A stretch of DNA of 64,000 bases from Candidatus Sericytochromatia bacterium. Its GTDB lineage: Bacteria; Cyanobacteriota; Sericytochromatia; S15B-MN24; UBA4093. The notes under the pieces were generated by a model. That model was not told the DNA's origin. It saw only the letters and a program-made list of their open reading frames with translations, and did no database searches. Position 1 is the first letter of the stretch; every line of letters starts with the position of its first letter. A program made the translations under genes and the position numbers. This document shows positions 42,295 through 64,000 of this stretch, piece after piece. The DNA lies in NCBI GenBank assembly GCA_036676495.1, contig JAKFCT010000014.1:32001-96000 (forward strand). Direction: 5' to 3'.

Positions 42295-42404
42295 TTTCTG
42301 AGGACGGCATGCCGCCTGAGCCCCGCCTTGATTGGCTTCTGAGGCCCACCTTTGCTGTGCTAAGATGAGAGCGAGTGCCTTTTCGGTAGCCGGGGGGAGA
42401 AGCC

Positions 42405-45400: not shown

Positions 45401-45848
45401 CAAGAGCGGCTCGATGATGATGGCCGGCAAACTCGAGGACTTCACCGACGCCATCGACGTGGTCGCCTTTCCGCGCACCTACGAGGAGTGCTCGGCCCTG
45501 CTGCATGACGACTCCAAGGTGCTCATCAAGGGCAAGTGGGCCGGCAACGACGAGCGACCCCAGCTCTTGATCAGTCAGGTCACCCCGCTCGCCGCCATGC
45601 CGAGCCTGCACATCCAGATTCCCGGGAACGCCAGCGGCAAGCAACTCGTCATGCTCGCCGAAGCCCTTCGCCGGCACCAGGGGGACACGTCCGTCGTCTT
45701 CCATTTCGATGGACAGAGCCAACAGGTGGTCGCGAGCGACATGTTCTGGGTAACATGGAATCCGGAGCTCGAGGCGTCGCTTTCCGCCATCATCGGTCCG
45801 GATCGCCTTCGCTACCACGCCCCTGAGGCACAGCTCACCCTTGTCTAG
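42405..45848 (+). CDS. dnaE: DNA polymerase III alpha subunit (contiguous, no intein)
   Basis: HCHVHSEYSLLDG PHP domain, GRGSAAGS, PDVDIDF, KMDFLGL, C-terminal OB fold. Confidence 0.97.
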   Translation: MSKPQFVHCHVHSEYSLLDGASRIGELVKRAAKYEMPALALTDHGVMYGAIEFYRKAKEAGIKPLIGCEAYVAPGSRFEKSPPKDGKPYGHLVLLAKNRTGYGNLIKLVSKGHTEGFYHKPRIDKELLEAHSEGLIALTACLGGEIPQHILKGRHEEAEQSARWFQRVFGDDFYFELQNHGLAEQRRVNQALLELSDRTGIKVAATNDSHFTNPEDMRAHEALLCIQTGKSLLDPTRQMHYGPDFYLKTPQEMADVFHDTPQALWNTLEIAQKCNLILDFGRTMLPRYEVPPGHTIESYLNKLAWDGLKERFETITPDLEERLKFELQIIEQMGFAAYFLIVWDFINYAKTNGIQVGPGRGSAAGSLAAYCLKITNIDPVKYNLLFERFLNPERVSMPDVDIDFCIDRRGEVIEYVGRKYGRDRVAQIITYGTLGAKAAIKDVGRVLELNFNDTNRLTKMVPEELNISLADATKEGTELYEEAERDMKVAEILELGKKLEGIVRNTSLHAAGVIISRDPLTETVPLQRVGKDDEGISTQYEYKYCEMMGLLKMDFLGLRNLTMMAKALEYIKERHGVDYDLNSQDFTDPKVYELLRSGATVGIFQVESEGMTKLIKRLQPTNFEDISAVLALYRPGPIQSGYVDEYVDRKHGKKAIEYAHPDLIPILQDTYGTMVFQEQIMQIAQVLAGYTLGQADLLRRAMGKKKKEEMDQQRAIFLDGTRKHGVTDEIANDLFDKMTKFSEYCFNRAHTAAYAVVTYHTAYLKAHFPAEYMAALMSSLLGSQDKILLCINDCRRMGIKVLPPDVNYSGADFTVTDEGIRFGMGAVKNVGLAAIEAICEARTRLPEGRFKDLYEFCSEVDLKVVNRRAIESLIRCGAFDTFEGHRAQLLAALDEAMDRAHRKQKDDAIGQISLFGGASAPLVVATPSLPDMDPFPDEEALAMEKDLLGLYISGHPLSTVPVKLEWHTTHTAYQLNSSQLEIKNVVAGGMLTQTRRMMTKSGSMMMAGKLEDFTDAIDVVAFPRTYEECSALLHDDSKVLIKGKWAGNDERPQLLISQVTPLAAMPSLHIQIPGNASGKQLVMLAEALRRHQGDTSVVFHFDGQSQQVVASDMFWVTWNPELEASLSAIIGPDRLRYHAPEAQLTLV

Positions 45849-45861
45849 AAGAGGCCGTCGC

Positions 45862-46305
45862 GTGATCCGTAAGCTGCTCATCCCGATTGGTCTGCTCGTC
45901 GTGACCGGTTGCGCGCCGTTCATGGCGACGTCCCAGGAGTTCTACTACCACGATGAGACTTACGCTGTGCGCCGGACCGCCGATGCGGTGGAGGTCTTCA
46001 GCGAGGGAACCCCGCGAACGCCCTACGTCGTGCTCGGGCGTGTCGTCGCCACCCAGGGGCTGTTCGGTTCCCGGGAATCGGTGCTCGCGGAGCTGCGCGC
46101 CAGGGCCGCCGCCATGGGAGCGGACGCCCTGATCAACCTGACCGAAGCGAAGGGAGCGCTCAACGGCACCGATGCCCTCTCTTCCGAGACGACCCGCTAT
46201 AACCAGGAGGGAAACGTCTCGACCAGCGAATCCTGGAACCAGGACGCAAAGGCCTCCATTCGCCTCACGATCTCGGCATTGGCGATTCGCTATCAATCGC
46301 CCTAA
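45862..46305 (+). CDS. Lipoprotein, YbjQ-like (LG.V...L..RAAAMGADA)
   Basis: Lipobox VTGC after a GTG start; PYVVLGRV and ELRARAAAMGADALI motifs. Confidence 0.65.
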   Translation: MIRKLLIPIGLLVVTGCAPFMATSQEFYYHDETYAVRRTADAVEVFSEGTPRTPYVVLGRVVATQGLFGSRESVLAELRARAAAMGADALINLTEAKGALNGTDALSSETTRYNQEGNVSTSESWNQDAKASIRLTISALAIRYQSP

Positions 46306-48397: not shown

Positions 48398-49354
48398 ATG
48401 AGAGTACTTGCCATTTTCATCGCGAGCACGGTCCTTCTGGCCGGCTGCTCCAAACCCTCCGACTCATCGGCTAACCAGGCGGAAATCCGCCTGGGAGCCC
48501 AATTATTCACCGAAAAGCGGCTTTCCCGGGACGGGTCTCTGTCGTGCGCCAGCTGTCACGACCCGGCACGAGGCTTCACCGATGGCCAGCCGGTCGCGGT
48601 GGGCCTCAACGGCGCCAAGGGCACCCGAAACACCCCGACCCTCTACGGCGTCGCGCACATGTCCAAGTTCTTCTGGGATGGCCGAGCCAATACCCTGGAG
48701 GAGCAGGCCCTGGGACCGCTCACGAGCCCCATCGAGATGGCGGCTGACCCCGATGCGGTCATCGACTGGCTCTCCAAGGACGAGGGCTACCGCCAGCGCT
48801 TCGAAGACGTCTTCGGTGGGCCTCCGACCTTGGAGCGCCTGACCAAGGCGCTGGCCACCTTCCAGCGGGCCGTGAAACTGGAACCGAGCCCCTTCGACCG
48901 CTGGCGGAACGGGGAGACCGAGGCCATCTCCGAGGCCGCGAAGCGCGGCTACAAGACCTTCTCGCAGCAAGGAAAGTGCTCGGTTTGCCACCGTGGGACC
49001 GAGCTCACCGACGGTGAGTTCCATAACCTCGGCATGGCTTCCAACCCCGAGAAGCCGGACCTCGGGCGCTTTGCGGTCAGCCAGTTCGAGGCTCACCGTG
49101 CCGCTTTCAAGACTCCGACGCTCTACAACGTGGACCTCACGGCCCCGTACATGCACGACGGGTCCCTCGGGACGCTGGAAGAAGTGGTGGAGTTCTACGA
49201 CCAGGGCGGCGGTCCGGGTCCGGGCCGCTCGACGCTCATGCGCAAGCTGAATCTGACGGAGCAAGAGAAGGCCGACTTGGTGGAGTTCCTCAAGACCCTC
49301 ACGGCACCGGACAATTCCAAACAATTGTTCGAGTCGGCTTCGAGCGCTAACTAG
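48398..49354 (+). CDS. Di-heme cytochrome c peroxidase (CCP/MauG family) lipoprotein
   Basis: Lipobox LAGC, CASCH and CSVCH heme sites, RNTPT, FWDGRA..LEEQA, FKTPTL.N...TAPYMHDG. Confidence 0.93.
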   Translation: MRVLAIFIASTVLLAGCSKPSDSSANQAEIRLGAQLFTEKRLSRDGSLSCASCHDPARGFTDGQPVAVGLNGAKGTRNTPTLYGVAHMSKFFWDGRANTLEEQALGPLTSPIEMAADPDAVIDWLSKDEGYRQRFEDVFGGPPTLERLTKALATFQRAVKLEPSPFDRWRNGETEAISEAAKRGYKTFSQQGKCSVCHRGTELTDGEFHNLGMASNPEKPDLGRFAVSQFEAHRAAFKTPTLYNVDLTAPYMHDGSLGTLEEVVEFYDQGGGPGPGRSTLMRKLNLTEQEKADLVEFLKTLTAPDNSKQLFESASSAN

Positions 49355-49381
49355 GTATCCTAGTTAGCGCTCGAAGCCGAC
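49333..49381. repeat. 23-bp perfect inverted repeat spanning the peroxidase stop codon
   Basis: GTCGGCTTCGAGCGCTAACTAGG-tat-CCTAGTTAGCGCTCGAAGCCGAC. Confidence 0.9.
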
Positions 49382-49414
49382 AACCTTCTCCCTGATTACG
49401 CGAATAGGCATCCA

Positions 49415-49461
49415 AGTAAAACAATAACCAGGTTATATAATAACCTGGTTATTGTTTTACT
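49415..49461. repeat. 22-bp perfect AT-rich inverted repeat
   Basis: AGTAAAACAATAACCAGGTTAT-ata-ATAACCTGGTTATTGTTTTACT. Confidence 0.9.
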
Positions 49462-49556
49462 CGGCTTTTTAACGAGGTGTATTTTTAACAAGCCTAATGA
49501 TTAACTAGTTTAATTATTAATCAGGTTAATGATTAAGGGCGTTATCCAATCGTCGA

Positions 49557-49937
49557 TCATGGGGTGACCGGAACCCGGTCCTCGACCTCGATCTTCAAAG
49601 GACCGAACTCGTCGGTGCGAACCTTCACGGTGAGCGCATGCGTTCCCGGAGCCAAGATCTGCCCCCGGACGGTGACCGCGACGACCTCCCCCTTCTTGAA
49701 AGTCACCGGGGCGGCTTCCGACACCGAAAGCGCTTCCCGCGTAACGCCTTCCTGGGCGAAGGTGATGGCTTCCAGGGCGTAGGACGTCCCGTCGACCGAA
49801 ACCTCGAGGATCTCCACGATGGTCGCCGGCATCACGGGATTGGTGAGGCCGAACTGAAACGCATGCTCCGCGTTGGATAGGCTGCCTGCCTGGTAAAACT
49901 GCGTCAGCATGAACGCGGGTATCTGCATTCCGAACAT
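49557..49937 (-). CDS. Hypothetical small beta-sandwich protein (possibly DUF6379-like)
   Basis: IPAFML..FY..GSL.N...FQF.L.N....ATI....VSVDG...GTH.L pattern; AGGGGG RBS; family assignment is from memory only. Confidence 0.65.
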   Translation of the reverse strand: MFGMQIPAFMLTQFYQAGSLSNAEHAFQFGLTNPVMPATIVEILEVSVDGTSYALEAITFAQEGVTREALSVSEAAPVTFKKGEVVAVTVRGQILAPGTHALTVKVRTDEFGPLKIEVEDRVPVTP

Positions 49938-50107
49938 CCGAGCCCCCTAAAATCGCTAGCTTCCGGTCCTTCTCTCTTCTTACACCCCTTCGGGCATCGA
50001 GACAAGCCTTTGGTAATCCCTGGGCCAATGGGGTAGAATGAACCAAGGAAGCACGTTCACCCCTGGCGCATCCCCAGGCATCTGGCTCAAAGACAGAGGA
50101 CTCACCC

Positions 50108-51283
50108 ATGAGTGGGCTTTTCCGCTCGATACAACTTCCCGACGGTAGATTCATCGACCTGCGGCGGGCCGGCCCCGACGACTCGGATGCCATCTTCGCC
50201 CTTTACGACCAGGTCTATCAGGGGTCTTACACCCTCGATATCGTCAACAAGACCACCGATCGCCTCGCGGCGCTCAGCGACCCCAACTTCTACTGGCTGG
50301 TGGTCGATGACGGCAGCGCCATCGTCGGCTCGGTCATCCTCGAGATGGACACCGTTCAGCGCAACGGCAAGGTCTTCGCCGCCGTCATGCGCGACGACTT
50401 CCGCCGCTATGACGCCATGAGCCGTCTCATCGGCATGGGCATCCAGAAGCTCATGTACGACGACCGCATCTGCGACGTCATCTACGCGACCACCCGGACC
50501 GCGAGCATCGGCCCGCGCCAGCTGCTCAAGAAGCTGGGCTTCATCAGCCTGGGGATCTTCCCGAACGTCCACCGCCTGGCCGAGTACGAAACCCACGGCC
50601 TCAGCGCCCTCTTCCACCCGGATGCCTGGGAGAAGCGGCGGCGCCTCCCCAAGCTCATCCCCGAGGTCGAGGGGTTCTACCGCATCATCCGGCAGACCTT
50701 CCATCTCGAGCCCGCCGAGATCATGCCTGCCAAGCACCAGCCCAAGCTCAAGATGATCCGCGGGGACGCCGTGGAACAAGAACTGCTGCGCGAGCGCGAG
50801 GCCGGCGCGCTCTTGATGGACTTCTTCCCCTTTCACAAGGCCAACTTCCTCTTCTCCAACGAGGACCGCAGCGTCATGGCCTTCGTCAACTACGAGGGCA
50901 AGGACGGCTACGGCACGCTCGTGGCGCTGAAGGCCCCCATCGAGGACCTGCGCGGCGTGCTCGAGGCCAGCTTCGACATGGGGCAGCGCCTCGGCATCGT
51001 CTACCTGGAGATCCTGGTCGACGCGTACAAGCCCCGCATGCAACGGGCGGCGCTCGCGGCCCAGTTCCTGCCATGCGCCTACTTCCCGAGCATGCAGCAA
51101 ACTGACGACGACCGGAAGGACTACCTGGTCTTCGCCCGTTCCACGCTGCCCCTCAACTTCTCCAACGTGCAGATGACGCCCCGAGACCGCGAGTTCCTCG
51201 ACCACTACCTCCAGAACACCGAGTTCCGGAACCTGGTCGTCAAGATGCACTTCACGGGGCCCCTCGACGAGGGTCGCCTGTGA
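50108..51283 (+). CDS. GNAT-fold acyltransferase-like protein with an extended C-terminal domain
   Basis: LRRAGPDD...I..LY..VY, WLVV....IVGS, V...FRR, LKKLGF..LG; GAGGA RBS; first gene of the operon. Confidence 0.65.
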   Translation: MSGLFRSIQLPDGRFIDLRRAGPDDSDAIFALYDQVYQGSYTLDIVNKTTDRLAALSDPNFYWLVVDDGSAIVGSVILEMDTVQRNGKVFAAVMRDDFRRYDAMSRLIGMGIQKLMYDDRICDVIYATTRTASIGPRQLLKKLGFISLGIFPNVHRLAEYETHGLSALFHPDAWEKRRRLPKLIPEVEGFYRIIRQTFHLEPAEIMPAKHQPKLKMIRGDAVEQELLREREAGALLMDFFPFHKANFLFSNEDRSVMAFVNYEGKDGYGTLVALKAPIEDLRGVLEASFDMGQRLGIVYLEILVDAYKPRMQRAALAAQFLPCAYFPSMQQTDDDRKDYLVFARSTLPLNFSNVQMTPRDREFLDHYLQNTEFRNLVVKMHFTGPLDEGRL

Positions 51284-52605
51284 TCGGGGCGTTCAACGCA
51301 GCCTCCATGGAGCGGCTCGCCTGGCCCGAGATCGAGACCCTCGCCCGGATCAAGCTGCGCACGCTGCTCGAGCTGGCGCGTTCGCGTTCCCCCTTCTACC
51401 GGGAGCGTCTCGCCGGCTTCCCGCTGCATGACCCCGAGGTCCTGCCCACCCTTCCGATCCTCAACAAGGAAGATCTCGTCGCCAACAGCCCGCCCGAGAG
51501 CGAAGCCATGCTCACCGGGCCGCTGGCGTCGGCCTACCTCTTCCGCAGCGGGGGCACGACCGGAGCCCCGAAGTTCTCGCCCTTTTCGGTCAGCGAGTTC
51601 AAGCACTGGGTCGATATCTTCAAGCGAACCTACGGCGCTGCCGGCCTGACGCCTCAGGACCGGGTCGCCAATCTCTTCGTCAGCGGCAGCCTTTACGCCT
51701 CGTTCATCTTCATCAACCGCATGGTCGAGGAGATGGGCTGCCTGAACCTTCCTTTCACCTCCTCGGCCGCTCCCGACACGGTCAGCGCCCAGATCGAGCG
51801 CTTCGACATCAACGTCATGATGGGCATTCCCTCCTGGCTGCTCGAGGTCGTCGCGGCCCTCACCCCGGCGGCCGCCGCGAAGGTCACCAAGATCTTCTAC
51901 GGAGGAGAGAACCTCTACCCCGAGGAGCGCGAATGGCTCCAATCGCACCTTCCAAATCTTAGAACTATCGCCTCGGGAGGCTACGCGTCCGTGGACGCCG
52001 GGATGATGGCGTTCCAATGCGGGGCCTCGCCCGGCGGCGTTCACCATGTCCACGCCGACCACGTGATCCTGGAGATCATCGATCCCGAGACCTGGATGGC
52101 GGTCGCTCCCGGTGAAGTCGGCCTGCTGCTGGTCACCACGCTCGACCGCCACTTGATGCCCCTGATCCGCTACCGCACGGGCGACGTCGGTCGCTGGGTG
52201 CCCGGTGACTGTCCCTGCGGCCGGCAGATGCCGCGCTTCGAACTGCTCGGGCGCGGCGACGACAGCCTGAGAATCGGCATCGCCACCGTCGGCATCGAGG
52301 AGATCCTGCCACCGATCGCCCAGACCCCCGGCCTCTCCACCCATGCGCAGATCGTCAAGGATCGCATCGAACGCAAGGACCAGCTCACCGTTCGGGTGGA
52401 GCGCCTTCCCGACGCGTCCGAGAGCCGCGAGGCGCTCGAAGCGAGCCTGGCCGAGCAGATCCGCCTCCAGAAGCCCGACCTCGCGAAGTTGGAGGCCACC
52501 GGTTACGTCATGCCCGTGCGCGTCGAGGTCCTGGACCCCAACGGCATCGGACGGGTCGCGGTCACCGGCAAGATCCGCCGCGTGGTCGACCGGTCTCGGG
52601 AATAG
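51280..52605 (+). CDS. PaaK-like (phenylacetate-CoA ligase family) adenylate-forming enzyme
   Basis: SPFYRE, RSGGTTGAPK, GYASVDAG, IRYRTGD, CPCGR, LLGRGDD, TGKIRRVVD. Confidence 0.88.
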   Translation: MIGAFNAASMERLAWPEIETLARIKLRTLLELARSRSPFYRERLAGFPLHDPEVLPTLPILNKEDLVANSPPESEAMLTGPLASAYLFRSGGTTGAPKFSPFSVSEFKHWVDIFKRTYGAAGLTPQDRVANLFVSGSLYASFIFINRMVEEMGCLNLPFTSSAAPDTVSAQIERFDINVMMGIPSWLLEVVAALTPAAAAKVTKIFYGGENLYPEEREWLQSHLPNLRTIASGGYASVDAGMMAFQCGASPGGVHHVHADHVILEIIDPETWMAVAPGEVGLLLVTTLDRHLMPLIRYRTGDVGRWVPGDCPCGRQMPRFELLGRGDDSLRIGIATVGIEEILPPIAQTPGLSTHAQIVKDRIERKDQLTVRVERLPDASESREALEASLAEQIRLQKPDLAKLEATGYVMPVRVEVLDPNGIGRVAVTGKIRRVVDRSRE

Positions 52606-52609
52606 CCAC

Positions 52610-53728
52610 ATGACTGCCATCGAACGCCTGGTTGAAATCGACACGCTCTTCGACCTGACGCCCGAGCACGACACATGCTTCGTCGAGGCCATGCGCGAAG
52701 CCAGCGCCTGGCATGTCGCGCAATCGCAGGTCTTTCGCCACCTTTCCCGCAAGCAAGGCTTCACGCCCGAGGGCCTGCGCGACATTGCGGACGTGGCCCA
52801 GGTGCCGCATGTCTTCGTGAATGCCTTCAAGCAGTACGAGATCCTCTCCGTCCCGCGCGAGGAGGTCGTCCTGACCCTGACCTCCTCGGGAACCACCGGC
52901 CAGCGCAGCCAGATCATGTTCGACCAACCCTCCCTGGATCGCGGCTTGAGGATGGTCGACCGGGTCTTCGAGGCCATGGGCCTGAAACACCCCGAGCAGG
53001 TCGTGAACTACATCCTCTTCGCCTACGACCCCGAGGAGGCCAAGCAGGTCGGCACCTCGTACACCGACGACAACTTGACCAACCTGACCCGCAAGGGCAA
53101 GGTCTACCACGCGCTGCGCTGGAACGCCGAGACCAAGGCGTTCGAGTTTCGCCCCGCCGAGTGCTACGCCAAACTGCTCGAATACGCCTCAGACGGCTTG
53201 CCCGTTCGCCTGCTCGGTTTTCCCGCCTTCCTGCATCGCCTGGTCCAGTACCACCAGGAATCCGGAGCGCCCGCCCTCGACCTGGGCCCCGAGTCCTACG
53301 TCCTCACCGGGGGCGGCTGGAAGACCTCGGAACATGCGGCCATCGACAAGGATCGCTTCATCGCGGAGGTCTCCGCGACCCTCGGCATTCCCCCCGGCAA
53401 CCTGCGCGACGGGTACGGCCTGGTCGAGCACGGCATCGCGTACATCGAGTGCGAGCACCATCGCTTCCATGTTCCGGCTTTCGCGCGGGCCTTTGCCCGG
53501 GACGTCGGGACCCTCGAGATCCTTCCCGACGGCGAGGTGGGCTTTCTCCAGCTCGTGACCCCGTACATGCGCTCGATGCCGACCATCTCCCTGCTCACCA
53601 GTGACCTGGCGCAGGTGGGAAGGGATTGTCCTTGTGGCCGTAAGTCCGGGACCATCGTCCTCCAGGGGCGTGCGGGCACCCGCAAGAACAAAGGATGCGC
53701 CATCACGGCGGCTCAGCTCTTGAAGTAG
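52610..53728 (+). CDS. LuxE-family acyl-protein synthetase
   Basis: TSSGTTGQRS, GFPAF, TGGGWK, RDGYGLVEH, LLTSDL, and C-terminal GRAG....KGCA carrying the acylated Cys typical of LuxE. Confidence 0.88.
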   Translation: MTAIERLVEIDTLFDLTPEHDTCFVEAMREASAWHVAQSQVFRHLSRKQGFTPEGLRDIADVAQVPHVFVNAFKQYEILSVPREEVVLTLTSSGTTGQRSQIMFDQPSLDRGLRMVDRVFEAMGLKHPEQVVNYILFAYDPEEAKQVGTSYTDDNLTNLTRKGKVYHALRWNAETKAFEFRPAECYAKLLEYASDGLPVRLLGFPAFLHRLVQYHQESGAPALDLGPESYVLTGGGWKTSEHAAIDKDRFIAEVSATLGIPPGNLRDGYGLVEHGIAYIECEHHRFHVPAFARAFARDVGTLEILPDGEVGFLQLVTPYMRSMPTISLLTSDLAQVGRDCPCGRKSGTIVLQGRAGTRKNKGCAITAAQLLK

Positions 53729-53738
53729 GAGAAGACGG

Positions 53739-56390
53739 ATGCACTACCTCTTCGGCCGCCCTTTCAAAGGCCTCATCGACGATGCCAAAGCCCAGGACGT
53801 GCTCCGAGAGGCGCAGTCGCGCCGGGCCGCCTTCCGTCAGGTCCCCCTGGAGACGATCCTGGGGGTGCTGGAGCGGGTCGGAAAGCGCTTCAGCGATCCG
53901 TCCGATCCGGTCACCCGCAAGGTGCTCGCGGAGGCCCCGGCTCAGATTGGTTTCAGCCGGCCCATGGTCGAGGAAGAGCTCAAGGGAGTGGCGCTCGCCC
54001 TGAGTCGCCCCTACCTCGAGCCGAAGATCGCCAAGGAGCTGGGATCCCTCGACGCGCTGGACGACTGGACCGGAGGGTACGGGAAGCCGTTCACGCGGGC
54101 CCTTCCGCGCGGAGTGGTCCTTCACGTCTCGAGCGGAAACGTCCTCAGCGCCGGGGCGTTGAGCATGGTCGAGGGCCTGCTCACCAAGAACGTCAACCTC
54201 CTGAAGGCCGCGAGCCGCGCCACCCTCTTTCCCCTGGCCTTCGCCGAGACCGTTCGCGAGGTCGACGAGGACGGCCATGTCGCGGAGTCCTTCGCCGTCC
54301 TCTCCTGGCCGGGCTCAGGTAGCCAGGTTCACCGCGTCTTCCAGGAGGGCTGCGATGCCATCGTGGTCTGGGGCGGCGAGGACGTCGTGAAAACTTACCG
54401 GGAAGGCCTCGGCCTCAAGTGCAAGCTCATCGAATACGGGCCGAAGGTCAGTTTCGGGGCGATCGCCCACGACGTCCTCGACGACCCCGACATCGCCCGT
54501 GAAGCGGCCATGGCGCTGGCCCTCTGGGATCAGAGCGCATGCTCCAGCCCGCAGGTCCTCTACGTCGAAGACGCGACTCCCGACCATGCCCCCACGCTCG
54601 CCTTCGTCGACCGCCTCGCGGACGCGTTGCGCGAGGTCGAAGCCTCCCTTCCCCAGGGCCCCCTGGGCTTCCAGGAGCGCGCCGAGCTGACCAAGGAACG
54701 TCAGGTGGCCGAGGTCACCGAGGCCATGGGCCAGGGTTTGCTCCGCAAGCCCGGCACGGCTCCCGACTGGACCCTCGTCGCGGAATGGGATCCCTCCTTC
54801 AAGCTCTCACCGCTGTTTCGCACGCTCTACATCAAGCCGGTCGCCAGCCTCTCCGAGCTTCCCGCGCTGGTCGCGCCTTACACGGATTACCTGCAAACCG
54901 CCGGGATCGCGGCAAAGCCCGAACGGGTCCGGGACCTGGCCGAGCAGCTCTTCGACACGGGCATGCTGAGGGTCACCACGCTCGCGGGCATGTCGGGCGG
55001 CGAGCCCGGCGAGCCGCATGACGGAGGCTACGCCCTGCATGCCCTGGTCAAGTGGGTGACCATGGGCTTCAAGGGGGAGGGCGATCGCTACGACGCCGCC
55101 GAGTGGCACAGCTCCGAGGCGGCCCAGCGCCAGACCTTCGCCAAGCTCAAGCGCCTGGTGGAGGATGTCGCTCCGCAAGCTCCCCTCTACCGGGAACGCT
55201 ATGCGGGGCTGAAAATCCGGACCTTGGACGACTGGTCTCGGGTGCCCGTCCTCAGCAAGGAGGATCTCCGCGCGGGTACTCCGCCTCGGAGCGAGGCCCT
55301 CTTCACGGGAGCGCCGCATGGGGCGCATTTCCTGAGGAGCGGGGGCTCGACGGGTGAGCCTGCCCTCTCGGCGTTCGCCTATCCCGACTACGAAGCCGAC
55401 ATGCTGCGGGCCGCACGGGGGCTCTTCGCCCTTGGCCTGAGGCCCGGCGATCGCGTCGCCAACCTCTTCATGGCCGGACACCTCTACGGATCCTTCCTCT
55501 CCATCAACCGCGGGCTGGAGCTGGTCGGCTGCAACAATTTCCCCTTCACCAGCGCCACTCCCGCCAAGGAGCTGCCTGCGCTCTTGCGGGCTTACGGCAT
55601 CGAGGTCCTCGCGGGCCTGCCGTCCTGGCTGATGGAGGTCTTCGAGGCCATCCGCCAGGACCCCGAAGGAGTTCGGATCCGCAAGGTCTTCTACACCGGC
55701 GAGCACTTCTACCCGCAGGATCGCGAGCGTCTGGCCCACGAGTTCGGGATCACGCAGTTCGGAAGCCTGGGCTACGGCACGGTCGACGCCGGCCCCATCG
55801 CTTACCAGTGCCAGGAGAGCCGCGGGGGAGTGCATCACCTTCACGACGACCACCAGTTCATCGAGATCGTGGACTCGGAGACGCTGATGCCGGTTCCGGC
55901 CGGAGAGCCGGGCGAATTGCTCATCACCAACCTCAACCGCCGCCTGATGCCGGTCGTGCGCTACCGGATTGGCGATCGCGCCCGCTGGATCCCCGAGCCC
56001 TGCCCCTGCGGCCGGCCGGCTCCACGCTTCGAGCTGCTGGGACGCTGCGACGACATGATGGTGGTGGGCGGCATCAACCTCACCTACGCCGAGTTGCACG
56101 AGGCGGCCATGAGCCTCGACGGCGTGCAAGGCCCCTTGCAACTCGTGATCTCGCGGCATGAGCACCGCGATCGCCTCACCCTGCGCATCGAAGCCAGCGA
56201 GCAAGGTCTGGGCGACATCCTCGCCGCGGGCGTCGTCGCCCGGGTCGACCTGCTGCGTCAGGTCATCGACAAGGGCCAGATGAGTCCGCTTGTCGTCGAC
56301 GTCCTGCCCCCCGGTGGGATCGAACGCATCCCCCGGACCGGCAAAATCCGCAAGGTGATCGACCGGAGAAACGATGAGCCCGTCAATTAG
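53739..56390 (+). CDS. Fusion: LuxC-family acyl-CoA reductase + PaaK-like adenylating domain
   Basis: N-half: PRGVVLHVSSGNV, VWGG, YGPKVSF, WDQSACSSPQ (catalytic Cys), HDG. C-half: RSGGSTGEP, GYGTVDAG, RYRIGD, TGKIRKVID. Confidence 0.88.
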   Translation: MHYLFGRPFKGLIDDAKAQDVLREAQSRRAAFRQVPLETILGVLERVGKRFSDPSDPVTRKVLAEAPAQIGFSRPMVEEELKGVALALSRPYLEPKIAKELGSLDALDDWTGGYGKPFTRALPRGVVLHVSSGNVLSAGALSMVEGLLTKNVNLLKAASRATLFPLAFAETVREVDEDGHVAESFAVLSWPGSGSQVHRVFQEGCDAIVVWGGEDVVKTYREGLGLKCKLIEYGPKVSFGAIAHDVLDDPDIAREAAMALALWDQSACSSPQVLYVEDATPDHAPTLAFVDRLADALREVEASLPQGPLGFQERAELTKERQVAEVTEAMGQGLLRKPGTAPDWTLVAEWDPSFKLSPLFRTLYIKPVASLSELPALVAPYTDYLQTAGIAAKPERVRDLAEQLFDTGMLRVTTLAGMSGGEPGEPHDGGYALHALVKWVTMGFKGEGDRYDAAEWHSSEAAQRQTFAKLKRLVEDVAPQAPLYRERYAGLKIRTLDDWSRVPVLSKEDLRAGTPPRSEALFTGAPHGAHFLRSGGSTGEPALSAFAYPDYEADMLRAARGLFALGLRPGDRVANLFMAGHLYGSFLSINRGLELVGCNNFPFTSATPAKELPALLRAYGIEVLAGLPSWLMEVFEAIRQDPEGVRIRKVFYTGEHFYPQDRERLAHEFGITQFGSLGYGTVDAGPIAYQCQESRGGVHHLHDDHQFIEIVDSETLMPVPAGEPGELLITNLNRRLMPVVRYRIGDRARWIPEPCPCGRPAPRFELLGRCDDMMVVGGINLTYAELHEAAMSLDGVQGPLQLVISRHEHRDRLTLRIEASEQGLGDILAAGVVARVDLLRQVIDKGQMSPLVVDVLPPGGIERIPRTGKIRKVIDRRNDEPVN

Positions 56391-57699
56391 GCCGGAAGGC
56401 CGTTCCGAGCGGCTCTCCGGCGTCGAGGACGGGATGGGTAGCGCGCTTCACGCCGAAACCCAGGTCCGCCGTCACCCTCCCCTGCTTCGCAACCGCGACT
56501 TCCTCCTGCTCTGGTCCGGGCAGGGCGTCTCGCAGATTGGCGCCAAGGTCCTGCAAATCGGCCTGGTCTGGTGGGCTTTGGAGCGAGGTGGCAGCCTCGC
56601 GGCGGTCAGCGGAGCGCTGGTGGCGACCTCGCTGCCCTTCGTAGTCGTCGGCCTCTTCGCGGGGGTCCTCGCGGACAAGTGGAATCGCCGCGGCCTGATG
56701 GTCGCTTGCGAGGCTGGAAACGCCGTGATCGTCTTGGCACTGGCGGCCTTGGCATGGAGCGATCTGCTCACGCTGCCCATCCTGATGGTCGGAACCGCGC
56801 TGGTCTCGACTCTGGCTGCCGTCTTCAGCCCCGCGGCGATGGCGTCGATTCCCGATCTGGTAGACGAGCCCGATCTCATTCGCGCCAATTCGCTTCAAGA
56901 GATGACCGCCCAGGGGGCCTTGGTCTTTGGTCCGGCGCTGGGGGGAGCGATGCTCGCGATGATGGGGGCGCCCGCCGCCTTTCTCACGACCGCGTCGACC
57001 TACGCGATCAGCGCCGTCTGCATGCTGGCGCTGCGCCTGAAGCGCCGCGAGGTGCCCGCGGATCCCGGTTCGGAGGGCGCCCATCCCGTGAAGGAACTGC
57101 TGGGCGGGTTCGCCGTCCTCAAGGAGAATCCGGCGATCGCGACCCTGCTCGGCCTCTTTGCCGTGGCGAATTTCCTCCTGGTGCCGGTCACCGTCTTCCT
57201 TCCCTACTATGCCAAGGACGTCTTCGCCGTCGGAGCGGGGGGACTCGGCATGCTGGAGGGAAGCATCGGGGTGGGAATGATCGTCGGAGCACTGGCGCTG
57301 ATGCGCGCAGGCTCGGTGTCCAAGCGGCGGCTGGCCATCCAGTGCGGCCTGGTCATTCCGGGCATGGCCCTCGCCTACATGGGGATCTGGCCGAGCTACG
57401 GAGGTTTCCTGGGAGCGCTCCTGGTTCTGGGCATCGCGCTATCGGTGATGAACGTCGTCTCGATGACGTTCTTCCAGGAGAACGTGCCGCCCGAGCGGTT
57501 GGGGCGTTTCATGGGCCTGCTCATGACGCTCATCATGGCCTTGATGCCGCTTTCTTACGGGGCGGCCGGCCTGGCGACGCTGGGCGTGCCGGCAGGCAGC
57601 ATCATGACCGGGGGGGGAATCGCGCTGGTGATCCTGGGGCTGCTTTTGCCGCTCTTTCGATCGCTGAGGCCGCTGGAGGGGGGAGGAATCGATGGATAA
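56374..57699 (+). CDS. MFS transporter (DHA3/macrolide-efflux-like exporter)
   Basis: RNRDFLLLWSGQGVS, AGVLADKWNRR (motif A), GPALGG, about 12 TMs; alternative start 56434. Confidence 0.9.
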   Translation: MSPSIRPEGRSERLSGVEDGMGSALHAETQVRRHPPLLRNRDFLLLWSGQGVSQIGAKVLQIGLVWWALERGGSLAAVSGALVATSLPFVVVGLFAGVLADKWNRRGLMVACEAGNAVIVLALAALAWSDLLTLPILMVGTALVSTLAAVFSPAAMASIPDLVDEPDLIRANSLQEMTAQGALVFGPALGGAMLAMMGAPAAFLTTASTYAISAVCMLALRLKRREVPADPGSEGAHPVKELLGGFAVLKENPAIATLLGLFAVANFLLVPVTVFLPYYAKDVFAVGAGGLGMLEGSIGVGMIVGALALMRAGSVSKRRLAIQCGLVIPGMALAYMGIWPSYGGFLGALLVLGIALSVMNVVSMTFFQENVPPERLGRFMGLLMTLIMALMPLSYGAAGLATLGVPAGSIMTGGGIALVILGLLLPLFRSLRPLEGGGIDG

Positions 57700-58966
57700 G
57701 ACCAAGGCTCGGCTTCGCTTCCTGAAGAGTCGTTTCCGCCGGCCGGCGTCGAACTCGGAGCGGGAACTCGCCTACTATGCCCTGCTCCAGCGGATCACGG
57801 CCTCCTTGCACCGGTCTCTGGACTTCGATGCGATTCTCGAGACGGTGGTCTCCGGGCTGCAGCATGAGCTGGATCTGACGCGGTGTTCGGTCTGGTTTCC
57901 CGAAGGCGCGACGGCGCTGCACATCCGCAGGGCCGTCGGGAAAGTGAGCGAGGGTCCGATGGCGAGCGCCGTCTGGCCGGTGGCCTGGGACGCGCTGGCC
58001 GATCGGCGGGTGGTGGCGGTCGACGACGTGCGGGCCTACGGGAAGGCGAGTTCCATCCCCCCGCATGTCGGAGCCCTGGGGCAGGTGGTCGCGGAAGCCG
58101 TCATTGCCGCCCCCATCCTGCTCGAAGCGGAGCTCAAGGGCTTGTTGCTGCTCGAGGCTCCGCATCCGCGGCACTGGGACGCGTCCACGATTCGCCTGAT
58201 CGAGGCGATCGCCGAGCAGCTCTCGGTGGCGCTGGTCCATGCGCGCATGATGATGTCCTTGAAGGAACTCGACGCGATGAAGACCGAGTTCCTTTCCATC
58301 GCCTCCCATGAGCTGCGCACGCCCATCACCGTCATCCGGGGCTACGCGGCCGTCCTCTTGCGACACGGGGGGACGCTCTCGGAAGCCGAGCGCAGCGAGT
58401 TCGTCCGCATGATCGATGATCGGGCCGTGCATCTGGGCCGCCTGGTCGAGGACATTCTCGACGTCTCGCGCCTGGAGGGCGGGATGCTCTCCTTGCACTC
58501 GGAACCCTTCGAATGGGAAGTCGTGCTCGGCAAGCTCATCGAGGGTCTCGAGCTCAAGTACCACCGCCCGGTGAACATCCACCTGACCACCATGACCACG
58601 CGCCGGGTATTGATTGCCGATCCTTCCCGGGTCGAGCAAGTCCTTTTGAACCTTCTCGATAATGCTATCAAGTACTCGCCCCCGAACGATGCGATCGATC
58701 TGGACGTCCGGGATACCGCGCGCGGGGTGCGGTTCACGGTGGTCAATCCGGGCGAGAAGCTGACCGTGGAGGAAGTGCGACGGCTGACCGGAAAGTTCGT
58801 TCGGCTGGATCGGCACCGGACGGCAGGCGGCACGGGGCTTGGACTTTACATTTGCCGGAGGCTCGTAGAGCTGATGGGCGGGACCTTGGAACTAGAAGCG
58901 ATGCCGGAGGGTGGCCTCCGGGTAGGGTTTGACCTGGCATGTCCGGACGATGTGCGAACGACCTGA
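57692..58966 (+). CDS. GAF-domain sensor histidine kinase
   Basis: GAF (SLDFDAIL..., APILL...LKGLL, EQLSVAL), H-box ASHELRTP, N-box NLLDNAIKYS, GTGLGL. Confidence 0.9.
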   Translation: MDKTKARLRFLKSRFRRPASNSERELAYYALLQRITASLHRSLDFDAILETVVSGLQHELDLTRCSVWFPEGATALHIRRAVGKVSEGPMASAVWPVAWDALADRRVVAVDDVRAYGKASSIPPHVGALGQVVAEAVIAAPILLEAELKGLLLLEAPHPRHWDASTIRLIEAIAEQLSVALVHARMMMSLKELDAMKTEFLSIASHELRTPITVIRGYAAVLLRHGGTLSEAERSEFVRMIDDRAVHLGRLVEDILDVSRLEGGMLSLHSEPFEWEVVLGKLIEGLELKYHRPVNIHLTTMTTRRVLIADPSRVEQVLLNLLDNAIKYSPPNDAIDLDVRDTARGVRFTVVNPGEKLTVEEVRRLTGKFVRLDRHRTAGGTGLGLYICRRLVELMGGTLELEAMPEGGLRVGFDLACPDDVRTT

Positions 58967-59083
58967 CGCTCATCCTCCTACTTGTCTTGCCACTAACTTT
59001 ATGAGAAGGTTAAGACAGTCAAGTATGGGATGACCGAACGCCTTTACTTGAGGGACAGGCACGTACTAGACAATGAGGTTTGT

Positions 59084-59905
59084 ATGAAACGCCTAAACCT
59101 GGGTCTTACCGGTCTTTTGATGGGGAGCTTGCTCGTCGGTTGCGGGATGCCGTCCGACCTGATGGTTTCCCCTCGCGCGTCTCAGGGCAGCTTCAGCGCC
59201 CGCTCCGGCGCGCCTGCCGACTACTATCAGTACGCTCAAGGCAAGACCGGCATGGCCCTGCTTTCCGCGCTTCAGAACACCGTCTCCAAGCACAAGGACC
59301 TCGGCTACGGCGGGGCCCGCAACGTGATGTTCGGAGACCTCGACGACGACCTCGACAACGACACCGTCGACTGCGTCTACACCGGCATGGTCGTCAAGGG
59401 CGTCAAGGACTCCGGGACCGCCATGAGCGGTGGCCTCAACACCGAGCACTCCTGGCCCCAGAGCCTGGGCGCCACCGGCGCCGCCAAGGCCGACCTCCAC
59501 CACCTGTTCCCGACCGACGTCGAGACCAACGGAGCTCGCGGCTCCCATCCCTTCGGCGAGGTGAAGAACCCCACGCATACGTTCCCGGTCTTCGACGTCG
59601 GCGCCCGCCAGAGCATGCTCGGCGTGAACGCCGCGGGCAAGACCGTCTTCGAGCCGCGCGACCAACACAAGGGCGACCTCGCCCGGGCCCTCTTCTACTT
59701 CTACACGGTCTATGGCTTCCGCGGCGGTGCCAACCTCTCCAACTTCCGCGTGGAGGAAGAGACCCTCAAGAAGTGGCACGTGCTCGACCCGGTGGACGCC
59801 TCCGAGCGGAAGCGTAACGACGGCATCTACTCCGTTCAGGGCAACCGGAACCCGTACATCGACCACCCGGAGTACGTCCAGGCTATCGGAAACTTCCTCA
59901 ACTAA
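59084..59905 (+). CDS. Endonuclease I family extracellular nuclease (lipoprotein)
   Basis: Lipobox LVGC; NTEHSWPQS, DLHHLFP, KGDLARALFYF, QGNRNPYIDHPE. Confidence 0.9.
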   Translation: MKRLNLGLTGLLMGSLLVGCGMPSDLMVSPRASQGSFSARSGAPADYYQYAQGKTGMALLSALQNTVSKHKDLGYGGARNVMFGDLDDDLDNDTVDCVYTGMVVKGVKDSGTAMSGGLNTEHSWPQSLGATGAAKADLHHLFPTDVETNGARGSHPFGEVKNPTHTFPVFDVGARQSMLGVNAAGKTVFEPRDQHKGDLARALFYFYTVYGFRGGANLSNFRVEEETLKKWHVLDPVDASERKRNDGIYSVQGNRNPYIDHPEYVQAIGNFLN

Positions 59906-61052: not shown

Positions 61053-62372
61053 CTAGCGCACTCCCTCGGGAACGTTGAAGGAGAAGACCTTGGCGTCCTT
61101 GATGGCGTCGCGCAGCTCGCCGCGGAAGTTCGGGTGCGCGATCGAGATCAAGGCATCCGCCCGCTGGCGTAGCGACAGGCCATGCAGGTTGACCGCCCCG
61201 TACTCGGTGACGACCCAGTGGACGTGACCGCGGGTGGTGACCACGCCGGCCCCCGGCTTGAGGGTGGCGGCAATGCGCGAGACGGTTCCCTTGCAGGCGG
61301 TCGCGGGCAACGCGATGATGGGCTTGCCACCCCGCGAGAGCGCCGCCCCGCGGATGAAGTCCATCTGGCCGCCGATGCCGGAGTAGACCCGCCAGCCGAT
61401 GGAATCGGCGCAGACCTGACCGGTGATGTCGACTTCGAGGGCGCTGTTGATGGCGACCACCCGATCGTTCTTGCGGATGACGGCCGTGTCGTTGGTGTAG
61501 TCGCACGGGTGGAATTCGACGGTGGGGTTGTTGTCCACGAAGTCGAAGAGGCGCTGGGTTCCGTTGATGAAGCTGGTGACCAGGCGGCCCCGCTTGAAGT
61601 TCTTGAGGCGGTTCGTGATGACGCCTCCCTCGACCAGGGGAACGACACCGTCCGAGAACATCTCGGTATGGATGCCGAGGTCCACCTTGTTGCCCAGCTG
61701 GGCCAGGACGGCGTCGGGGATGGCGCCGATGCCCATCTGGAGGGTGGAGCCGTCCTCGATGAGATCCGCGATGATACCGCCGATGCTGCGCTCCACGTCC
61801 GAGATGACGGCGGGCTCGTGGGTCATCAGGGGGCGATCGGTGAGGATGAAGTGATCGATCTTGCTGATGTGGATGAAGCTGTTGCCGAGGGTTCGGGGCA
61901 TCTGCTTGTTGATCTCGGCGATCACGATGGCGGCCGTGTCGACCGCAGCGCGCGCGGTGTCCACCGAGGTGCCCAGGCTGCAGTAGCCATGCTCGTCGGG
62001 GTAGGAGACCTGCACGACGGCGACGTCGAGGGGAATCTGACGGGACGTGAAGAGCCAGGGGATATCGGAAAGGAAGATCGGGACGTAGTCGGCCCGGCCT
62101 TCGTTGACGGCTTGACGGAGATTGGAACCGGTGAACAGGGAGTTGGCGTGGAACTGGCCCGCCTTTTCGGGAGCCGCGTAAGGAGCGGGCCCCGCCATGT
62201 GCAGGTGATAGACTTCCACTCCGTGAAGGTCGTTGCGGGCGGCCATGGCTTCCTCGAGCGGAATCGGGGATGCACAGGCGCCATGCAGAAAGACCTTCAT
62301 GCCGCTCTTGATGGGCAGGACGGCTTCTTCAGGGGTCACGGCGCGCTGTTGCCAGGTCGTGGTGAGTCGCAT
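61053..62372 (-). CDS. Acetyl-CoA hydrolase / 4-hydroxybutyrate CoA-transferase family
   Basis: LQMGIGAIPD, GIHTEM, SGIGGQMDF, VVTEYG, IAHPNFR. Confidence 0.93.
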   Translation of the reverse strand: MRLTTTWQQRAVTPEEAVLPIKSGMKVFLHGACASPIPLEEAMAARNDLHGVEVYHLHMAGPAPYAAPEKAGQFHANSLFTGSNLRQAVNEGRADYVPIFLSDIPWLFTSRQIPLDVAVVQVSYPDEHGYCSLGTSVDTARAAVDTAAIVIAEINKQMPRTLGNSFIHISKIDHFILTDRPLMTHEPAVISDVERSIGGIIADLIEDGSTLQMGIGAIPDAVLAQLGNKVDLGIHTEMFSDGVVPLVEGGVITNRLKNFKRGRLVTSFINGTQRLFDFVDNNPTVEFHPCDYTNDTAVIRKNDRVVAINSALEVDITGQVCADSIGWRVYSGIGGQMDFIRGAALSRGGKPIIALPATACKGTVSRIAATLKPGAGVVTTRGHVHWVVTEYGAVNLHGLSLRQRADALISIAHPNFRGELRDAIKDAKVFSFNVPEGVR

Positions 62373-62547
62373 AGGTAGATACTCCTCGCATGTGATGGAC
62401 GCGTCAGGAGGATTCTACCGCAAGGAAAACGCGCGTGGCGTCCGCAATCTTTGCGTATGCGATGCTGAGGGGTTCTCGCGTTCTCGGGGGGCTGAAACCG
62501 AGGTAAGGGGCAGTTTAAATTTCCTCCAAGTTTTCTGCATTAGGTGC

Positions 62548-62576
62548 TTGCACAGTTCGAGCCGAGGTGTTATTGT
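62548..62576 (+). promoter_or_regulatory. Sigma70-type promoter of the tRNA gene
   Basis: TTGCAC, 17-bp spacer, TATTGT, ending 12 nt before the tRNA. Confidence 0.6.
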
Positions 62577-62588
62577 AGATTGTGTTGG

Positions 62589-62662
62589 GCGGCCATAGCT
62601 CAGCTGGATAGAGCGAATGACTACGAATCATTAGGTCGGGGGTTCGAATCCCTCTGGCCGCG
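62589..62662 (+). tRNA. tRNA-Arg (anticodon ACG)
   Basis: Acceptor stem GCGGCCA/TGGCCGC, D-arm AGCTCAGCTGGATAGAGC, anticodon arm AATGA-CTACGAA-TCATT, T-loop GGTTCGAATCC; followed by CCT, so CCA is not fully encoded. Confidence 0.96.
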
Positions 62663-62670
62663 CCTGATGG

Positions 62671-62711
62671 AGAAACTGGTTGGACCCGATGGGTCCAACC
62701 AGTTTCTTTTT
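62671..62711 (+). terminator. Rho-independent terminator after the tRNA
   Basis: 17-bp stem AGAAACTGGTTGGACCC-gat-GGGTCCAACCAGTTTCT plus a T-run. Confidence 0.8.
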
Positions 62712-62899
62712 AATCGTATCAGCCGCAGCGGCAAGGCTATCAATGGTTGGCGGTATCCGACCGCCAGTTCTTCATCCTTCAAAGGCCAGTTAGGTCGAGA
62801 TCGCTGGCCTGGAAAACCCTGCCCCCGCGGAACCGGGAAGAAACTAGCGTTAGCAGCACTTTTCGGGATAGTGGCCCAATATGAACGCTGCCACTCGTG

Positions 62900-63931
62900 C
62901 TATTTCGCGCCACTAGCGCGGGCACATTCCAGAAGGCTACGTCGCACTGCCAGCTCATGAATCTTCCGATGGCCATGGGTTCTCAACGTTTCCCGGACCG
63001 TTTCATTCGAGAAGAGCGTATCGCACAAGTGGCATGAGTTCGCATATCGCTCAGGCAATTCCAGGTTCGGATTATGAGCCAGTACGAATTGTCGGATGCT
63101 TTCGGGTCCCTCAAGAGCGAGCCAGTTAACGATGAGGTCTTGATTGCCTTGCCGGAGAATCTCGGACAATGACTGTTCTTTGAGTGATCCAATGGTTAAC
63201 TCGGGCAATGAGCGCCGGGTAATGCCGCAGCATATCTCTACATCCATGCTGGGAGCTACAACAATGCTCTCCATGACGGAACTGCACGCGCCTACCCAAG
63301 GCTTATCTGATTCGCTGGGCATCCATTCGTCCGAGCTGACGGAGTTTGAGCCTCGACCAATGGGGACTGTGATGCCCGTGGAGATGAGGTTGCATGGGGG
63401 ATTCTGTTCGCCGGGCCGAAACTGGATGAGCTTTCTCTCCAGGGCGCTTTCCAGGTATTCGTGCGTGATGGTGCTGCTGCGAAACTGCTTGTGAGCGAGT
63501 AGGTAGGGAATTCCTAACTCCTCAGCCGCGTCCATGGCGTTCCCAATGCAATCCAGGCTCACGAATTCTTGGTGAAAGTCGTCTACGCTGAAGTTGATCT
63601 CCGTGAGACCTGCCGTGAGGAGTTCGCTCAGCCGGGCCAGGGCCACTTCCTTACTAGTCGCCCAGTATGCGCTGGTAACGATCCGGGTCATGACGTTCAG
63701 AGAGCTGCAATGTTCGACGAGTTCCACAAGCCGATTCCTGAAGAGAAACGGCTCGCCACCTGTAAAGACGACCAATTCCAGCAAACCCCAGGAATTCACC
63801 GTGTCGATCATGTCCTTCATAAAGTCCGGTGAAAGCGCTTCAGTTTCCCTGGGGCCGCAGCTCGTGCCGCAGAAATCGCATTGAAGGGGACAGCGGTAGG
63901 TGGTAACGAACGTAAGCTGAGAAATCGACAT
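62900..63931 (-). CDS. Radical SAM protein with a C-terminal Cys-rich (SPASM/twitch-like) domain
   Basis: CPLQCDFC, FTGGEPF, SVDDFH, C-terminal C...CC and CHLC; codon usage differs from host genes. Confidence 0.9.
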   Translation of the reverse strand: MSISQLTFVTTYRCPLQCDFCGTSCGPRETEALSPDFMKDMIDTVNSWGLLELVVFTGGEPFLFRNRLVELVEHCSSLNVMTRIVTSAYWATSKEVALARLSELLTAGLTEINFSVDDFHQEFVSLDCIGNAMDAAEELGIPYLLAHKQFRSSTITHEYLESALERKLIQFRPGEQNPPCNLISTGITVPIGRGSNSVSSDEWMPSESDKPWVGACSSVMESIVVAPSMDVEICCGITRRSLPELTIGSLKEQSLSEILRQGNQDLIVNWLALEGPESIRQFVLAHNPNLELPERYANSCHLCDTLFSNETVRETLRTHGHRKIHELAVRRSLLECARASGAK

Positions 63932-63932
63932 G

Positions 63933-63998
63933 TTAGGCCCTACCATCAAGCAGTTTCATCACCTCTTGGCTAAGCAGCGGGCCAAAATCGAGCGTGAG
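63933..63998 (-). CDS. 3' end of an upstream gene (partial)
   Basis: Open frame LTLDFGPLLSQEVMKLLDGRA* ending TAA-C-ATG directly before the radical SAM start. Confidence 0.4.
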   Translation of the reverse strand, partial: LTLDFGPLLSQEVMKLLDGRA

Positions 63999-64000
63999 GG

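Follow-up and report, generated by a model that had tools for sequence, protein, structure and literature searches.

Six closely packed genes on one strand were analyzed in a 64,000-nucleotide stretch of the Candidatus Sericytochromatia bacterium assembly GCA_036676495.1 (contig JAKFCT010000014.1, forward-strand positions 32,001 to 96,000). This whole stretch is referred to as the window, and its numbering is used for all coordinates unless a locus is named. The genes encode an acyltransferase, a free-standing adenylate-forming ligase of the PaaK type, a LuxE-type acyl-protein synthetase, a LuxC-type reductase fused to a second PaaK-like ligase (LuxC::PaaK), a predicted exporter of the major facilitator superfamily (MFS), and a soluble histidine kinase (Table 1). 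The first five resemble the parts of the pathway for leupeptin, a widely used protease inhibitor.

Table 1. Genes and promoter-like site of the operon, in window coordinates (aa, amino acids; nt, nucleotides)
Feature	Position	Strand	Basis
Gene 1, predicted tandem-GNAT acyltransferase, 391 aa	50108..51283	+	Predicted structure, profile comparison
Gene 2, free-standing PaaK-like adenylate-forming ligase, LeupC-like, 441 aa	51280..52605	+	Pfam, BLASTP
Gene 3, LuxE-type acyl-protein synthetase, LeupA-like, 372 aa	52610..53728	+	Pfam, PDB alignment, BLASTP
Gene 4, LuxC-type thioester reductase (~residues 1-441) fused to PaaK-like ligase (~455-883), LeupB-like, 883 aa	53739..56390	+	Pfam, PDB alignment, BLASTP
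Gene 5, MFS exporter (predicted), EntS/Mef-like, 441 aa	56374..57699	+	Pfam, NCBIfam
Gene 6, soluble GAF-HisKA-HATPase histidine kinase, 424 aa	57692..58966	+	Pfam
Promoter-like site (TTGGTA, 18-nt spacer, TAGAAT), low confidence	50010..50039	+	Lies in the 170-nt gap 5' of gene 1

Pfam recognized AMP-binding (8.6e-10) and AMP-binding_C_2 domains in gene 2, LuxE in gene 3 (1.6e-35), LuxC (1.1e-78) and AMP-binding (6.3e-12) in gene 4, MFS_1 (7e-36) and MFS_3 (2e-23) in gene 5, and GAF (6e-13), HisKA (7e-18), and HATPase_c (1e-24) in gene 6. The MFS protein also matched the NCBIfam models TIGR00900 (224 bits) and EntS (102 bits). Scores against the NCBIfam models for LuxC, LuxE, and PaaK all fell far under the curated cut-offs. 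The LuxC domain reached 120 bits where 750 are required and the LuxE domain 105 where 550 are required, and the two PaaK-like domains of the window reached 141 and 175 bits against 700 (NF041878) and 129 and 158 bits against 646 (TIGR02155). Gene 2, at 141 bits, is therefore not a true PaaK, and by these scores the LuxC, LuxE, and PaaK proteins encoded here are family members, not functional equivalents. The original prediction, an earlier reading of the bare sequence, had assigned the same domains correctly, including a GNAT in gene 1 that was recovered by predicted structure. It had also described the system as carrier free, and the Pfam search of the six gene products turned up no carrier-protein domain.

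Catalytic motifs are retained in the activating and reducing enzymes. Gene 3 aligned with the LuxE chain 7xc6_E (2e-25), and its C-terminal TRKNKGC lay over the TRxxKGC of Photobacterium LuxE, for which both the motif and Cys364 are given in PMC9157457. The LuxC domain aligned with 7xc6_A (2e-31), placing WDQSAC over the YDQQAC of the solved LuxC; PMC9157457 names Cys296 as an active-site residue of LuxC, which may be the cysteine aligned here. The catalytic cysteines that the original prediction had noted in both proteins thus fall within motifs that align with solved structures. The LuxC motif [DE]Qx[AG]C was present in 81/81 alignments and the C-terminal cysteine motif of LuxE in 59/68, and residues Q265, C268, and K869 of gene 4 were invariant across 19 homologues. 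The phosphate loop is kept in all three ligase domains, and both PaaK-like ligases keep the C-terminal TGK lysine, with an SGGTTGAP loop in gene 2. At one Armatimonadota locus (L019:7165-10989; protein P0045), LuxE, LuxC, and PaaK are fused in one frame of ~1280 aa, which supports the idea that the three activities act as one unit.

Gene 1 had no Pfam match and a weak NCBIfam match to GNAT (1e-4). In its AlphaFold model (predicted local distance difference test score of 83), the N-terminal half adopts a GNAT fold (Z 18.4, root-mean-square deviation of 2.4 Å over 154 residues in the fold search). Because full-length fold searches were filled by this N-terminal domain, the C-terminal half was modelled and searched alone, and it also returned a GNAT fold (Z 12.3, 3.3 Å over 129 residues), with GNAT-fold proteins in all 50 of the matches listed. 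With both halves modelled as GNAT folds, gene 1 is predicted to encode a tandem GNAT; it has 175 homologous protein clusters.

The leupABCD genes and an adjacent MFS transporter gene of Klebsiella michiganensis/oxytoca, Photorhabdus, and Xenorhabdus were reportedly described by Li et al. in 2020, in work known here through the papers that cite it. According to PMC11480411 and PMC8283571, the product of the operon is leupeptin and a derived pyrazinone, and PMC8283571 gives leupABCD primers together with a 5.8-kb span. The leup reference for sequence comparison was locus L084, a metagenome contig retrieved with the published primer leupA_f, to which eight metagenome loci matched. On L084, leupA_f lies at 10001 and leupB_r at 11216-11235, reproducing the published 1235-bp amplicon, and the genes run in the order LacI-type regulator, MFS protein (419 aa), LuxE (378 aa), LuxC plus AMP-binding fusion (801 aa), PaaK-like protein (446 aa), and GNAT (305 aa). 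The five parts from the MFS protein to the GNAT agree with the five components of the NC_016612.1 leup locus that are listed in the Methods of bioRxiv 10.64898/2026.08.25.747093.

BLASTP revealed homology between window and Leup enzymes. LeupA matched gene 3 (38% identity, 3e-85), the LuxC half of LeupB matched the LuxC half of gene 4 (28%, 1e-32), and the ligase half of LeupB matched the ligase half of gene 4 (37%, 2e-58). LeupC matched gene 2 (35%, 3e-62) and the fused ligase of gene 4 (30%, 3e-43), the free-standing ligase being its best match among the PaaK-like domains of the window. Common to both systems are a LuxE-type synthetase, a LuxC::PaaK fusion, a free PaaK-like ligase, a GNAT-type acyltransferase, and an MFS protein, and neither has a carrier protein or a nonribosomal peptide synthetase (NRPS). 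The original prediction knew of no characterized pathway with this architecture and proposed an undescribed system. Together, leupABCD and the MFS gene beside it supply all five parts, the LuxC::PaaK fusion among them, and with this match to a characterized cluster the claim of an undescribed system fails. Another part of that proposal, the general idea that a small aldehyde is produced and exported, agrees with the leup operon as the closest characterized relative.

Conservation of the gene set was assessed with one genome per species. Among 185,579 species, 467 stretches from many phyla encode a relative of LuxC::PaaK, and the fusion itself has 93 homologous protein clusters. The best 80 of these 467 stretches gave 79 loci from other species, in which parts were counted within 9 kb of LuxC by tblastn with queries from the window, from L084, and from a type-II (partner-switch) form of the cassette described below; short contigs were included. 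The closest relatives among the best 80 were Sericytochromatia metagenome-assembled genomes (MAGs) at 82-84% identity. LuxE was present at 67/79 loci and lay directly upstream of LuxC at 63/79, while the fused ligase was detected at 72/79. A GNAT of any type occurred at 58/79 loci (tandem GNAT at 21/79, HATPase_c_2::GNAT at 37/79), a free PaaK at 40/79, and an MFS gene at 36/79. All five window parts stood together at eight of the 79 (L003, L005, L008, L010, L011, L012, L027, and L066). Of the 34 loci flanked on each side by 6 kb or more, 33 have LuxE and 30 a GNAT type. The joint occurrence of the five parts at eight loci and the frequent placement of LuxE immediately upstream of LuxC show that the arrangement is more than chance.

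Within the class, LuxC::PaaK was encoded by 24/47 genomes, the window's own included. Counted by family among the other genomes, the fusion occurred in 9/9, 8/8, 1/1, 4/8, 1/1, 0/6, and 0/13 (families f1 to f7), and the two nearest families had it in all 17 other genomes. In class genomes with the fusion, the contig that carries it usually holds a second match, to a free ligase, at a distance of a few kb. Conservation of the gene set across genomes, whose absence the original prediction had named as grounds for refutation, is seen both in the class-wide counts of the fusion and in the parts counted at the 79 loci.

Given these data, the reading we favor, with a probability of roughly 0.7, is that the genes at 50108-57699 encode a distantly related version of the leupeptin-type pathway (leupABCD plus MFS), which operates without an NRPS or carrier protein. 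Several observations weigh against it. The sequences are only remotely related to those of the characterized operon. In a FastTree tree of 79 LuxC domains, that of LeupB sat outside the other 78 on a branch of ~2.3-2.5 changes per site, a placement that is unreliable, and its highest identity was 28%. LeupD had no BLASTP match to gene 1 at 1e-3; when a profile of the gene 1 family (24 sequences) was compared with the LeupD GNAT domain, hhalign gave 94% probability (E 1e-7, 128 columns), confined to the N-terminal domain. The MFS proteins of L084 and of gene 5 likewise had no BLASTP match at 1e-3. In the N-terminal domain of gene 1, the acetyl-coenzyme A (CoA) loop motif typical of GNATs appears degenerate, both in the sequence and in the family consensus. 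At three loci of the Sericytochromatia clade with flanks present (L006, L007, and L009), neither a tandem GNAT nor a free PaaK was found within 9 kb of LuxC.

The two systems differ in organization as well. Gene order is GNAT-PaaK-LuxE-LuxC::PaaK-MFS here and MFS-LuxE-LuxC::PaaK-PaaK-GNAT in leup, the window operon has a GAF kinase behind it and leup has a LacI-type gene in front, and identity reaches only 28-38%. In place of the 305-aa leup protein with one Pfam-detected GNAT domain, the window has a 391-aa tandem GNAT with similarity at the profile level only, and its MFS protein is one of a pair without a mutual match. The host here is an uncultured, soil Sericytochromatia-like MAG. In the LuxC tree, the window joined Sericytochromatia MAGs in a 13-row clade (support 100), and a second supported clade of 44 rows corresponded to the different, partner-switch-linked form of the cassette. 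In a tree of the ligases, LuxE-type sequences formed one group (68 rows, support 100), and LeupC and gene 2 of the window fell together in one starred set of 31 rows with Sericytochromatia-type free ligases, an association to which long-branch warnings apply. A literature search found no paper that sets out the roles of the individual Leup enzymes, that ties leupeptin to LuxE/LuxC, or that describes leup-like clusters outside Klebsiella typing work, and papers on Sericytochromatia biosynthetic gene clusters, judged by title and abstract, included none on this cassette.

With the relationship this distant, the product of the leupeptin-type variant would probably be a small exported N-acyl peptide aldehyde, protease-inhibitor-like and not necessarily leupeptin. 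In the route we propose, the tandem GNAT would acylate the first amino acid on its amino group. The two PaaK-like ligases, one free and one fused to LuxC, would then each adenylate a carboxylate and couple it to the following amino acid through the amine of the latter, yielding an N-acyl di- or tripeptide acid. The LuxE-type enzyme would adenylate the terminal carboxylate and load it onto its own C-terminal cysteine, from which the LuxC domain would take the acyl group onto its cysteine for NAD(P)H-dependent reduction to the aldehyde, and the MFS protein would export the product. The assignment of ligases to steps, the building blocks, and the product are inferred from the parts list and the known functions of these enzyme families. 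The likely product class and a final carboxyl-to-aldehyde reduction would be shared with the NRPS and terminal-reductase pathways for Streptomyces leupeptin, livipeptin, and flavopeptins treated in PMC10548850; those pathways are carrier dependent and modular, with enzymes that are not homologous to those of the window.

With the same enzymes, the ligases could instead convert an aryl-acetic acid, a fatty acid, or a single amino acid to a thioester, on CoA or on an enzyme, which LuxC would reduce to a simple aldehyde or alcohol or to an N-acyl amino aldehyde, with no peptide formed. Consistent with this, the fused ligase half of gene 4 matched solved PaaK (phenylacetate-CoA ligase) structures at 2e-45, the distance to leup is large, and Armatimonadota, Riflebacteria, and other groups have three-gene forms that lack the free ligase, so chain length clearly varies. 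Three adenylating domains and an N-acyltransferase, however, exceed the needs of single-acid reduction, the leup operon contains a counterpart of each part, and the NCBIfam scores for PaaK, LuxC, and LuxE all lie far under the equivalog cut-offs. A product class without a peptide bond is therefore considered unlikely, though it deserves more weight than the alternatives discussed below.

A further possibility was that genes 3 and 4 form an ordinary lux-type fatty-acid reductase feeding aldehyde to a luciferase encoded elsewhere in the genome. The LuxC-LuxE reductase (PDB 7xc6), as described in PMC9157457, passes an adenylate through a LuxE-cysteine thioester and a LuxC-cysteine thioester to an aldehyde, and both domains with their cysteine motifs are kept here. 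The MAG comprises 106 contigs and is 92% complete, so absences are not absolute. It encodes one LuxC. Across the 92%-complete genome no luxA or luxB was found (best scores of 29 bits against a cut-off of 600 for LuxA and 22 against 500 for LuxB), PF02273 had no match that would indicate LuxD, and the sole luciferase-like protein belongs to the MsnO8 family of oxidoreductases (435 bits). The lack of luxA, luxB, and luxD that the original prediction had noted in the window thus extends to the genome as assembled. Also unlike the lux enzymes, LuxC here is fused to a ligase, and its score and that of LuxE are far under the equivalog cut-offs; a fatty acid is an unlikely substrate. Bioluminescence was rejected on the absence of luxA, luxB, and luxD from the 92%-complete genome and on its single LuxC, which leaves this explanation with almost no probability.

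A second form of the cassette is linked to partner-switch genes and occurs in Proteobacteria, Bacteroidota, Thermodesulfobacteriota, and others. Examples are L017:4651-14208 (Rhodopseudomonas palustris JSC-3b) and L069 (Marichromatium gracile DSM 203), both from cultured hosts, with ~35 other loci. As in the window, PaaK, LuxE, LuxC::PaaK, and MFS lie in one cassette, but the order is MFS, a 463-aa protein, PaaK, LuxE, LuxC::PaaK, and a ~490-aa fusion protein that joins an RsbW-like HATPase_c_2 domain to a GNAT. Unlike the window, this form is often found beside STAS, RsbW-like, and SpoIIE-Cache genes, which suggests partner-switch control of the acyltransferase. Matches to the Klebsiella-type LeupD fall on the GNAT part of the fusion. 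Gene 1 gave nothing significant by BLASTP against the R. palustris HATPase_c_2::GNAT protein, and their profile comparison gave 72%. No paper on this form was found in the literature. The 463-aa protein (L017:6133-7524) and its relatives, conserved at ~450-463 aa between MFS and PaaK at 31/79 loci, had no Pfam or NCBIfam match; at several loci it weakly resembled the PaaK-like domain by tblastn (22-25% identity).

The role of gene 6 is of separate interest. The original prediction counted the GAF kinase as part of the system, but a similar kinase directly follows the MFS gene only at L003 and L011 of the 79 loci. These two share the whole neighborhood, including genes for cytochrome c peroxidase, endonuclease I, and an AI-2E transporter, and they belong to the same lineage, so their adjacency is not independent evidence. 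Partial-query matches to the kinase lay 5.7-7.4 kb away at L006, L027, and L076, on the other strand at L006, and 74/79 loci had no similar kinase within 9 kb. Because it directly follows the MFS gene in only two close relatives, the kinase appears from these comparisons to be a lineage-specific neighbor, not a core part, and at most a local regulator. Its gene overlaps the MFS gene by 8 nt, and co-transcription in this genome is therefore likely.

That overlap on the same strand, and the place that the kinase keeps in L003 and L011, would fit a circuit in which the operon makes and exports an aldehyde and the GAF kinase senses it, or a derived pyrazinone, and feeds back on the operon. A precedent is given in PMC11480411, where a leupeptin-derived pyrazinone is treated as an autoinducer-type signal in Klebsiella. 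With a conserved position confined to two loci of shared neighborhood, no similar kinase at most loci, and no response-regulator match among the flanking open reading frames (ORFs) scanned (42360-63949), such a circuit is improbable. A fuller version, in which operon and kinase would form a self-contained make-export-sense circuit in a non-photosynthetic cyanobacterial relative, the tandem GNAT would install a non-acetyl cap, and the kinase would read the peptide aldehyde or pyrazinone as an autoinducer, is a still longer shot. If true, it would extend the leupeptin/pyrazinone signaling of Klebsiella to an unrelated phylum.

The six genes lie where the original prediction had placed them, and their junctions agree with the overlapping or near-touching ends that it described. 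Genes 1 and 2 overlap at GTGA (51280-51283). The stop codon of gene 2 (TAG, 52603-52605) is followed after 4 nt by the ATG of LuxE, and 10 nt separate genes 3 and 4 before 53739. Genes 4 and 5 overlap by 17 nt at 56374, and the overlap of genes 5 and 6 begins at 57692. The ORF listed for gene 3 is longer (52343-53728), but relatives align from about residue 90 of this long frame, and the LuxE start was therefore set at 52610. A scan of 49300-59400 found one promoter-like site against 1.2 expected from shuffles, which is no better than chance. The sole argument for the site listed in Table 1 is its location ahead of gene 1, and it is held with low confidence.

Several features near the operon were also recorded. 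A perfect 20-bp palindrome in an AT-rich island (49415-49461) lies between a cytochrome c peroxidase gene on the plus strand and a minus-strand gene at 49557-49937, and is probably a two-way terminator. The latter gene, divergent from the operon, encodes a 126-aa protein with an HMG-CoA_red_N / C-glycoside deglycosidase beta-like domain (1.7e-18) and is probably the real upstream gene. A listed ORF that overlaps it (49510-50193, minus strand) has no family match and an Arg/Gly-rich translation, and it looks spurious. Farther away, a minus-strand ORF of 1187 aa at 42360-45923 had no Pfam match and is mirrored by a 1147-aa ORF on the opposite strand. At 62001-64000, G+C content falls from ~0.65 to 0.56 near a radical-SAM gene (62900-63949, minus strand).

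These results turn a candidate for an undescribed system into a distant member of a described one. The leup operon is described as narrowly distributed in PMC11480411. Comparison with the window places this cluster in a far larger LuxC::PaaK family that spans many phyla. Within that family, the tandem-GNAT form clearly diverges and could alter the chemistry of the N-terminal cap. If these cassettes make peptide aldehydes, they would offer protease inhibitors or signals that arise without NRPSs, are so far untapped, and may be overlooked by genome mining centered on NRPSs.

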